DNA from: an uncultured Thermodesulfovibrio sp.
Lineage (GTDB): Bacteria; Nitrospirota; Thermodesulfovibrionia; Thermodesulfovibrionales; JdFR-85
Direction of reading: 5' to 3'
Assembly (NCBI GenBank): GCA_964391515.1
Contig: CAYMML010000006.1
Coordinates: forward strand, 1-36,755
DNA length: 36,755 nucleotides
The position numbers and the translations under genes are program-made. Shown piece after piece: positions 15,203-25,658 of this stretch (positions within the stretch are counted from its first letter, which is position 1; every line of letters starts with the position of its first letter). The notes below the pieces were generated by a model that saw only the letters and a list, made by a program, of their open reading frames with translations, made no database searches and was not told the DNA's origin.

Positions 15203-15279
<77 letters not shown>

Positions 15280-15397: not shown

Positions 15398-15474
15398 TGG
15401 CGCGCCTGAGAGGATTCGAACCCCTGACCTGAGGTTCCGGAGACCTCCGCTCTATCCAACTGAGCTACAGGCGC
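15398..15474 (-). tRNA. tRNA-Arg(CCG)
   Basis: GCGCCTGTAGCTCAG...GAGGT CT-CCG-GA ACCTC...GGTTCGAATCC...CAGGCGCGCCA. Confidence 0.97.
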
Positions 15475-15565: not shown

Positions 15566-15655
15566 GGAGGGGTGGCCGAGTGGTTGAAGGCGTCGGTCTT
15601 GAAAACCGATGTGGGGGCAACTCCACCGTGGGTTCGAATCCCACCCCCTCCGCCA
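15566..15655 (+). tRNA. tRNA-Ser(TGA)
   Basis: GGAGGGGTGGCCGAGTGG...TCGGT CT-TGA-AA ACCGA, long variable arm, GGTTCGAATCC, ...CTCCGCCA; 90 nt. Confidence 0.97.
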
Positions 15656-24301: not shown

Positions 24302-25270
24302 TTAACCAAGTATTTTGGCGGCCTCAGGGGCAAAATAGGTAAGTATCATATCGGCACCGGCACGCTTTATAGAGGTGAGGATCTCCATCATAACACGGTC
24401 GTGATCGATCCAGCCAAGTTCTGCCGCCGCCTTAACGAGGGAGTACTCACCCGATACATTGTATGCGGCAACAGGGAGGTCAAATGCCTCTTTTACATCG
24501 GAGATTATGTCAAGGTAAGAAAGAGCCGGCTTTACCATCACGATGTCTGCACCCTCCTCTATATCAAGCGCCACCTCCTTCAGTGCTTCCCGCCTGTTCG
24601 GCGGATCCATCTGGTAGGAACGACGGTCACCAAACTGAGGTGCACTCTCGGCAGCCTCCCTGAAGGGCCCATAAAAGGCAGAGGCATACTTGGCAGCATA
24701 ACTCATTATTGGTATATCCGAAAACCCCTCCTCATCAAGTGCCTCTCTTATCGCCTGTACCCTGCCGTCCATCATGTCTGAAGGGGCAACCATGTCGGCA
24801 CCTGCCTTTGCGTGGGAGACGGCCTCCTTCTGTAACAGTTCGAGGGTGGGATCATTAAGAACCTCTCCGTTGCTAATTACACCACAATGGCCATGGCTCG
24901 TGTACTCACACATACATACATCGGTAATAACAAGAAGTGAGGAGGTAGCGTCCTTGATGGCCTTTATCGCCTCCTGAACCACTCCATGAGGGTCGTAGGC
25001 ACCAGAGCCTACCTCATCCTTATGTTCAGGGATTCCAAAAAGTATTATGGCCGGTATGCCGAGGGATTCTATCTCTTTTGCAGATTTAACGATGTTATCC
25101 ACAGATTCCTGATAACAGCCGGGCATGGAGCCAATTGGTTTACGCACTCCCCTACCATAGGTAACAAACATGGGATAAATAAGGTCATCCACCCGAAGGA
25201 CGGTCTCACGAACCATCCTCCGGAGTGTCTCCGTCTTACGCAGTCTTCTTGGTCGGTGTAATGGGAACAT
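24302..25270 (-). CDS. hemB: Porphobilinogen synthase (ALA dehydratase), Zn-type
   Basis: [56 protein letters not shown]. Confidence 0.98.
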
Positions 25271-25282
25271 ATACTTTATTTG

Positions 25283-25594
25283 CTAACAACTACTACAACT
25301 GGGACCGCAGGAAGACTGGCCACCCTTGAGTACAAACCCCTGAGTTATCCCGTCGTCAACAAAATCCATCTCCATATTCTCAAGCATACGATACGAAAGG
25401 GGGTCTATGTACACCTTAAGCCCATTCTTCTCAATTACCTCGTCCCCTTCCAGAGGACTCTCGGCCAGATCAAGGCCATAAGAGGTGGATCAGCCGCCGC
25501 CTGCAACATATATCCTGAGACCCCAGTCGGGCTTACCCTCCTGGGCAAGTATCTCCTTGGCCTTTTCAGCCGCTTCTGATGTTATTGTAAGCAT
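25283..25594 (-). CDS. HesB/IscA-like Fe-S carrier, probable selenoprotein (in-frame UGA at codon 35); missing from the ORF track
   Basis: AAGGAGG SD at 25599-25605. Manual translation: MLTITSEAAEKAKEILAQEGKPDWGLRIYVAGGG-U-STSYGLDLAESPLEGDEVIEKNGLKVYIDPLSYRMLENMEMDFVDDGITQGFVLKGGQSSCGPSCSSC*. The IscA-like pattern continues for 68 codons past the TGA at 25490-25492. Confidence 0.88.
25458..25484 (-). promoter_or_regulatory. Candidate bacterial SECIS hairpin
   Basis: 3' of UGA: CUCUU/GAGAG lower stem, AU bulge, GGCC/GGCC upper stem, G-containing loop UUGAUCU starting 16 nt after the UGA. Confidence 0.6.
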
Positions 25595-25658
25595 CTTTCC
25601 TCCTTAAGTTCTGTGCTACTCGTATTTCCAGATTCAGGATAATCATTAGAACTCTCTT

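Follow-up and report, generated by a model that had tools for sequence, protein, structure and literature searches.

The gene considered here lies on contig CAYMML010000006.1 (assembly GCA_964391515.1) of an uncultured Thermodesulfovibrio sp., of which positions 1 to 36,755 were analysed as one stretch, hereafter termed the window. The minus strand holds, from 25594 to 25283, a reading frame of 103 residues with a UGA read through at codon 35. The translation, profile scores and predicted fold of its product indicate an A-type iron–sulphur (Fe–S) carrier of the IscA/HesB/ErpA kind in which selenocysteine (Sec) is encoded by that UGA. The frame starts with ATG at 25594..25592, preceded at a distance of 4 nucleotides (nt) by the Shine–Dalgarno sequence AAGGAGG (25605..25599), and ends with TAG at 25285..25283; a GGAGG-type motif was found upstream of the start in all 20 orthologous loci inspected. 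The UGA (25490..25492, minus strand), which alignment with Cys-containing homologs places at the first conserved cluster-ligand position, occurs in the context LRIYVAGGG-U-STSYGLDL. Translation yields MLTITSEAAEKAKEILAQEGKPDWGLRIYVAGGG on its 5' side and STSYGLDLAESPLEGDEVIEKNGLKVYIDPLSYRMLENMEMDFVDDGITQGFVLKGGQSSCGPSCSSC on its 3' side, and the family pattern beyond the UGA runs through GDEVIEKNGLKVYIDPLS to MDFVDD, GF and the CGPSCSSC tail. Under translation table 11, the only open reading frames (ORFs) of the gene region are a 43-residue minus-strand fragment (25283..25414) and a 99-residue shadow ORF on the plus strand (25280..25579); the gene was missed by gene finders because the first cluster-binding Cys is written as UGA. 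A first-pass annotation, made from the letters alone, had proposed a hidden selenoprotein gene at 25283-25594 and had described a perfect Shine–Dalgarno sequence and ATG, a UGA where A-type carriers have their first Cys, a family pattern continuing to the CGPSCSSC end, and a shadow ORF on the opposite strand, all of which were borne out. Its coordinates were right as to position, but the strand is the minus one, and a plus-strand reading of the interval was discarded, as the translation is meaningless.

The protein was assigned to its family by profile searches and structure prediction. It scored 60 bits against the Pfam profile PF01521 (Fe-S_biosyn; cut-off 26.3) and 76 bits against the NCBIfam profile TIGR00049 (iron-sulfur cluster assembly accessory protein; cut-off 58.8), and it stayed under the cut-offs of the ErpA, IscA and SufA equivalog models of NCBIfam. 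An AlphaFold model computed from 30 aligned sequences had a mean predicted local distance difference test (pLDDT) value of 83.8, with the C-terminal residues 95–103 disordered (pLDDT <50). Foldseek retrieved E. coli IscA (PDB 1r94 and 1s98) and SufA (2d2a) as the best PDB matches, with template modelling (TM) scores of 0.75–0.82, within a top set that also included 2apn (HI1723) and 1x0g ([2Fe-2S] IscA; E 4e-8 to 5e-6 and TM 0.73–0.82 over the set); DsrR, a protein of the IscA fold, was also among the structural matches. In sequence alignments, Cys35 of E. coli IscA and the Cys within the GGGCSG of HI1723 stand opposite residue 35; at least 90% of the 30 aligned homologs have Cys in this column, and C96 and C103 are almost invariant across them. 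By these scores and the predicted model, the protein is an A-type Fe–S carrier with an IscA/SufA-like fold. The ligands of E. coli IscA are Cys35, the residue found opposite U35 in our alignment, Cys99 and Cys101. The C-terminal tail of the window protein (SSCGPSCSSC; 25286..25309, minus strand) comprises Cys96-x3-Cys100-x2-Cys103, read from the translation and the homolog alignment, and presumably supplies the second and third ligands, the central ligand position being Sec. The spacing C-x3-C-x2-C differs from the C-x-C of classical A-type carriers, as had been pointed out from the sequence with respect to their C-G-C tail, but it is common to the Cys-containing homologs of the same clade and is thus a clade feature rather than a Sec-specific one.

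The genome consists of 264 contigs, with a completeness of 95%, and no PF01521 gene other than this one was found in it, a status known from the window's own genome only. An IscU/NifU_N-type scaffold (C61) and an Nfu-type protein (C45), one of each, accompany it, and the SufB/D core (PF01458) was not found in the 95%-complete genome, which suggests a minimal ISC/NIF-like Fe–S system. We consider it very probable that the window encodes the sole detectable A-type carrier of this organism, with a UGA-encoded Sec at the first ligand position, that of Cys35 in IscA. That Sec35 actually binds the cluster is a narrower claim, which we favour with moderate confidence. The chief competing view holds that Sec35 is real but serves redox chemistry or chalcogen transfer; it might relay persulfide or perselenide, deliver iron or form a selenenyl-sulfide with one of the tail Cys. 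Such a role would accord with the opinion, found in two articles, that most known prokaryotic selenoproteins have redox functions and that it is unclear what the HesB-like ones do (PMC13188914, PMC11097638). The three tail Cys would be available to pair with Sec, and the structural match to DsrR also fits. However, U35 falls exactly where A-type carriers have their invariant first ligand Cys, its surroundings (GGGUSTS) contain neither CxxU nor UxxC, and nothing else would fill the housekeeping role of a carrier, as this is the only A-type carrier found beside the IscU-type scaffold. We regard the redox role as possible but doubtful, and cluster ligation by Sec35 as the better account; both roles had been put forward, as inferences, in the first-pass annotation.

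The machinery for Sec insertion is encoded in the genome, with selA (605 bits), selB (385 bits) and selD (319 bits, itself with one in-frame TGA) all above the curated cut-offs, together with a tRNA-Sec of anticodon UCA (75 bits). A second tRNA-Sec-like gene was detected outside the window (C141:3229-3324, minus strand, corresponding to L016:1501-1596, minus strand), with 60.9 bits against RF01852 (cut-off 47); ARAGORN calls nothing at this site. It fits the selC* tRNA-Cys class, which is reported to occur in Thermodesulfovibrio and Nitrospirae and to have some members with a UCA anticodon that translate UGA as Cys (PMC5389517). What plausibility there is in the idea that a suppressor tRNA of this type (tRNA-Cys with UCA), or near-cognate read-through, puts Cys or some other standard residue at codon 35 comes from this gene. 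Its anticodon loop is CUGCAAA, though, and since the anticodon is GCA and not UCA, the tRNA reads Cys codons. The canonical tRNA-Sec(UCA) is present along with selA, selB and selD, and a conserved, Sec-linked hairpin with a G-G loop follows the UGA. TGA is moreover the commonest stop of the genome, closing 475 of the 985 open frames that span 300 codons or more, and is thus still a stop that has not been reassigned genome-wide; the neighbouring gyrA and histidine-kinase genes end at TGA, as do six of the 12 Sec orthologs inspected. Decoding as a standard residue is accordingly very improbable.

Orthologs were sought in 61 genomes of the same order. Across seven genera belonging to the family of the window (15 genomes, the window genome included), every best ortholog contains one in-frame TGA, always at codon 35 and within GGG-U-STSYG(L/I)D. 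The orthologs of an eighth, sister genus lack a stop in all eight genomes, and the seven loci that were read carry TGT (Cys) in GGGC(S/A)PSYGLD. The possibility that the gene is a pseudogene created by a nonsense mutation, or yields a mere 34-residue peptide with the downstream frame untranslated, would match the halt of table 11 gene calling at codon 35 and the public annotation of an ortholog, which is limited to a 64-residue "hypothetical protein" starting after the UGA (P0056). Against it, the TGA is retained in all 15 orthologs although these have diverged to 54–95% identity, their downstream frames are devoid of further stops and frameshifts, and the C-terminal Cys motif is kept. The ratio of non-synonymous to synonymous substitution rates (dN/dS), for pairs with unsaturated dS, is 0.07–0.23 downstream and 0.09–0.23 upstream of the UGA; because purifying selection is alike on both sides, a decaying pseudogene is ruled out, and this reading as a whole, with the short peptide, is very improbable. 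A sequencing or assembly error hiding a TGC or TGT can be practically dismissed, for although the assembly is fragmented into 264 contigs, the same TGA occurs in 14 other genomes, and in four public runs belonging to two studies, the best-matching of which may be the source sample, the contigs show no differing letter at 25490-25492 among 40 of the 59 rows of differences.

These results also answer the checks that the first-pass annotation had named, namely a search for selA, selB, selC and selD, the pairing of Cys and UGA at position 35 among homologs, decay downstream of the UGA, and a TGC or TGT in the reads. The machinery proved complete, tRNA-Sec(UCA) included, homologs and sister-genus loci do pair Cys with the UGA, the downstream frame shows no decay, and an error is excluded by 15 independent genomes with the same TGA. 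The gene is thereby supported as a genuine HesB/IscA-type selenoprotein gene, and we infer that selenium is actually inserted at codon 35.

A hairpin had been reported to follow the UGA. Hairpins do exist downstream; however, the adjacent one is a weak helix of 4 base pairs (bp), and the conserved one lies farther away. The latter, GUCCUCU-GGA-AGGGGAC (25442..25458, minus strand), has 6–7 bp and a U-GGA-A loop that begins 37 nt (read as a 5-nt loop) or 38 nt (read as a 3-nt loop) after the UGA, and its conservation together with Sec makes it the putative apical stem-loop of a selenocysteine insertion sequence (SECIS). Each of the 15 Sec orthologs retains it, 94% of cells being paired, and the four C-G pairs of the helix are invariant or changed only to U-G. 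Hairpins were scored with our own implementation of the consensus model of Zhang and Gladyshev for the bacterial SECIS (bSECIS), whose constraints are given in the legend of Fig. 2 of PMC13188914, which sets a spacing of 16–37 nt, a loop of the form N1-G-[G/U]-N-N2 and an energy threshold of -7.5 kcal/mol. The loop U-G-G-A-A fits this form. The distal hairpin was present at -6.8 to -8.5 kcal/mol in all 12 Sec genes scored (-7.1 to -8.5 kcal/mol in the orthologs), and none of eight Cys orthologs had a qualifying hairpin, seven being without any and one reaching -2.6 kcal/mol. About 2.3% of some 4000 random genome sites reach -7.5 kcal/mol.

Synonymous sites are frozen over codons 37–50 of the 15 Sec orthologs. 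Codon entropy is 0–1.05 bits at the four- and sixfold-degenerate codons Thr37, Gly40, Leu41, Leu43, Ala44, Pro47, Leu48 and Gly50, while Ser38, inside the same stretch, remains at 1.52 bits; most other such codons of the gene have 1.4–2.2 bits, and its other Gly and Leu residues use three to five codons. Leu48 is CTG and Gly50 is GGG in all 15 orthologs, and Pro47 is CCC or CCT. The adjacent, proximal hairpin, GGCC-UUGAUCU-GGCC (25463..25477, minus strand), starts 12 nt after the UGA and is paired in 90% of cells. It shows one compensatory change from C-G to A-U, its pairs 30-40 and 31-39 are each unpaired in three of the 15 orthologs, and its region coincides with the lowered synonymous variation at Gly40, Leu41 and Leu43. 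It fails the published loop-G and energy constraints and may be an element that compacts the spacer. Two further foldings were set aside, namely a CCUC/GAGG closing helix, which is paired in only 80% of cells with no compensatory change, and an RNAalifold helix pairing the UGA region with the Ala44 codon, which was not trusted, the distal hairpin alone being robust.

For comparison, three formate-dehydrogenase-alpha-like (fdhA-like) genes and selD of the same genome each contain one in-frame TGA and a SECIS-like hairpin (C116:3285-5291, plus; C16:10843-12846, plus; C20:19037-19792, minus; C235:119-1027, minus). In the fdhA-like genes, Sec stands within HCAR(Y/L)UHS or HQARIUHS, and the context in selD is KAAGUAGK. 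The hairpin loops follow the UGA by 18–19 nt in two fdhA-like genes, 22–23 nt in the third and 16–17 nt in selD.

The preferred reading of a Sec-containing, cluster-binding carrier would work as follows. SelB with Sec-tRNA(UCA) would be recruited by the mRNA hairpin at 25458..25442, inside the coding sequence, and we infer that this distal hairpin is the SelB site. The ribosome would then insert Sec at the UGA and continue to the TAG, giving the 103-residue protein. In a more speculative extension with a two-hairpin SECIS, the proximal hairpin would fold away 15 nt and bring the distal GGA-loop hairpin within reach of SelB on the ribosome; with these 15 nt folded, the through-space spacing would be about 22–23 nt. 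The protein, probably as a dimer, would most likely use Sec35 and the Cys96/Cys100/Cys103 tail to bind a [2Fe-2S] or [4Fe-4S] cluster, and would pass it from the IscU-type scaffold to client proteins. As a ligand, the selenolate would be more nucleophilic, more labile and of lower pKa than a thiolate, and might alter the lability or oxidation behaviour of the cluster. On the extended reading, maturation of the clients of A-type carriers would hinge on the selenium supply. That all parts hold at once, with the sole housekeeping carrier dependent on selenium, the selenolate a true Fe–S ligand, the SECIS made of two hairpins and the whole set in a (probably) thermophilic Nitrospirota family, we consider unlikely.

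Several observations weigh against this account. In the bSECIS check that had been suggested beforehand, stem and loop agreed with the published model, but the spacing of 37 or 38 nt lies at or just past the published limit of 16–37 nt, and the energy of the window's hairpin, -6.8 kcal/mol with the 5-nt loop or -7.7 kcal/mol with the 3-nt loop, straddles the -7.5 kcal/mol threshold. The loop also lies 15–20 nt farther from the UGA than in selD and the three fdhA-like genes of this genome. Folding of the 71-nt segment that begins just ahead of the UGA gives no gain in stability over shuffled sequences (z = -0.27). Covariation is not significant, the observed score being reached by 134 of 500 shuffles, because the distal helix hardly varies, and it is not significant either in a three-way-junction version with the CCUC/GAGG closing helix. 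The support for the SECIS therefore consists of its conservation and its association with Sec; the 15 Sec genomes are kin and may amount to a single evolutionary event. With the genome 95% complete, a second carrier could be unassembled. Finally, the CxxxCxxC tail, in place of the classical CGC and disordered in the model, bears on the ligand geometry.

HesB-like selenoproteins are an established prokaryotic family of anaerobes, of which 11 members were counted in 2006 (PMC1794560). The family is listed with TIGR01911 and the motif UxGP in a 2026 review (PMC13188914), and a HesB-like protein of Methanococcus maripaludis, identified by mutagenesis and 75Se labelling, is described in another article, which calls its function unclear (PMC11097638). 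The initial description of such proteins as known in anaerobes and poorly defined in function agrees with these sources (PMC1794560, PMC11097638). The window protein shares with them a length of about 100 residues, the IscA/HesB fold and a single Sec; it differs in being closer to the housekeeping TIGR00049/ErpA-type carriers and in having its SECIS loop 37–38 nt from the UGA. It scores 26.3 bits against TIGR01911 (HesB_rel_seleno), below the cut-off of 66.35, and has the motif U-S-T-S instead of UxGP as given in the review (PMC13188914). The gene joins the known HesB/IscA-like selenoprotein kind and, by profile score, falls within the general A-type carrier family.

With NF038090 (IscA_HesB_Se), which from its name alone we take to be a model built around selenoproteins, the protein shares the same domain over its full length (residues 1–102 of the protein, 1–101 of the profile), but at 45.1 bits it remains under the cut-off of 85; in a whole-genome search the score was 38.2 bits, with no match above the cut-off. 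The other Sec clades of the order also stay below the NF038090 cut-off, at 35–50 bits. Relative to IscA, SufA and ErpA (1r94, 1s98, 2d2a, 1x0g, 2apn), the fold, the first ligand position and the Cys-rich C-terminal tail are kept, whereas Sec takes the place of Cys as first ligand, the tail has the spacing C-x3-C-x2-C where theirs has C-G-C, and the gene adjoins hemB and is not in an isc or suf operon. The consensus bacterial SECIS differs from that of the window in spacing (37–38 nt here) and in that a second small hairpin lies within the window's spacer. No description of a Sec-containing TIGR00049/ErpA-type carrier from Nitrospirota was found in the literature searched; the supplementary sequence lists of PMC1794560 and tables of PMC5389517 may include members of this clade.

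HesB/IscA-like selenoproteins have been listed for some twenty years, yet such genes still escape annotation, and both curated models of HesB-type selenoproteins (TIGR01911 and NF038090) miss the window gene. Seven genera with Sec forms, a sister genus with a Cys form at this locus and two more Sec clades nearby constitute a comparative system, in which natural U35/C35 pairs make the role of selenium in an Fe–S carrier directly testable. The spacing of 37–38 nt, against 16–23 nt in the same genome, provides a test case for the limits of SECIS placement in bacteria and for prediction software.

A tree of 53 sequences contains three Sec clades, namely the window clade, a clade of family f5 at the hemB locus and a paralogous clade. 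Three changes between Cys and Sec are most parsimonious, and at least two are forced by well-supported branches. The 15 Sec forms stand on one side of a weakly supported branch (77/72), and a single clade of the f1 and f5 Sec forms is not rejected (approximately unbiased test, p-AU 0.31). The f5 ortholog at the hemB-linked locus (L046-L049; G049, G060, G026 and G038) is also a Sec form (GGUGCGPSYGIGI), with a hairpin UUCCUAU-GGA-AUAGGAA whose loop lies about 18 nt after the UGA; in G038, a second in-frame TGA occurs near the C-terminus. This canonical placement points to either an independent gain or a relocated SECIS, so that Sec would have been recruited convergently at the same ligand, or the SECIS moved wholesale. 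Because the SECIS positions differ, independent Sec gains are suggested, not proven. The paralogous Sec-carrier clade (L050-L058; families f3, f8 and f9) has the motif GGU(S/G/R)PSLAMDIA, is not hemB-linked (none of nine loci), carries a strong hairpin (UGGCUAU-GGAC-AUAGCCA) and falls short of the TIGR00049, NF038090 and TIGR01911 cut-offs. The L056 frame, ...STCRUCQSF, may contain a second Sec or a TGA stop. The hairpins of these other clades (UAU-GGA-AUA and UAU-GGAC-AUA) have their loops 17–18 nt after the UGA. Across the phylum, 323 of 401 sampled genomes contain a homolog at E <= 1e-15, and among the 150 matches listed (238 further ones exist), at least four families have TGA forms.

The carrier gene is followed on the same strand by hemB (porphobilinogen synthase, ALAD; 24302..25270, minus strand; 523 bits against PF00490), which starts 13 nt downstream; the two are probably co-transcribed. 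Next after hemB comes gyrA, and a hybrid histidine kinase gene lies 187 nt upstream of the carrier gene. The carrier–hemB pair occurs in all 26 loci of the orthologous lineage, in Sec and Cys forms alike and in three families (f1, f5 and f11), a steady adjacency that joins an Fe–S carrier gene with a gene of tetrapyrrole synthesis. FlpD/MvhD (PF02662), sought in the genome as a further selenoprotein gene, gave no match.

A search of 5.8 billion predicted proteins returned 63 homologs; none was a full-length member of the Sec clade, and the best full-length ones were Cys forms of at most 64% identity. The sole database entry of the Sec clade is P0056, annotated in a Nitrospirae metagenome-assembled genome; it represents the post-UGA part of an ortholog, has the same sequence as the C-terminal end of the L028 translation and is an example of systematic mis-annotation. 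That the lineage is a thermophilic one of the Nitrospirota is suggested by the names attached to database homologs (Nitrospirae, Thermodesulfovibrionales) and by a run from a hot spring in which 92% of the sampled words occur; no RNA run is listed among those that contain the sequence. An Rfam scan of the window returned three tRNA genes only (15206-15279, minus; 15401-15474, minus; 15566-15652, plus). The last one scores 51 bits with the tRNA-Sec model (cut-off 47), but because it reaches 65.6 bits as a general tRNA, it is probably a tRNA with a long variable arm and not selC.

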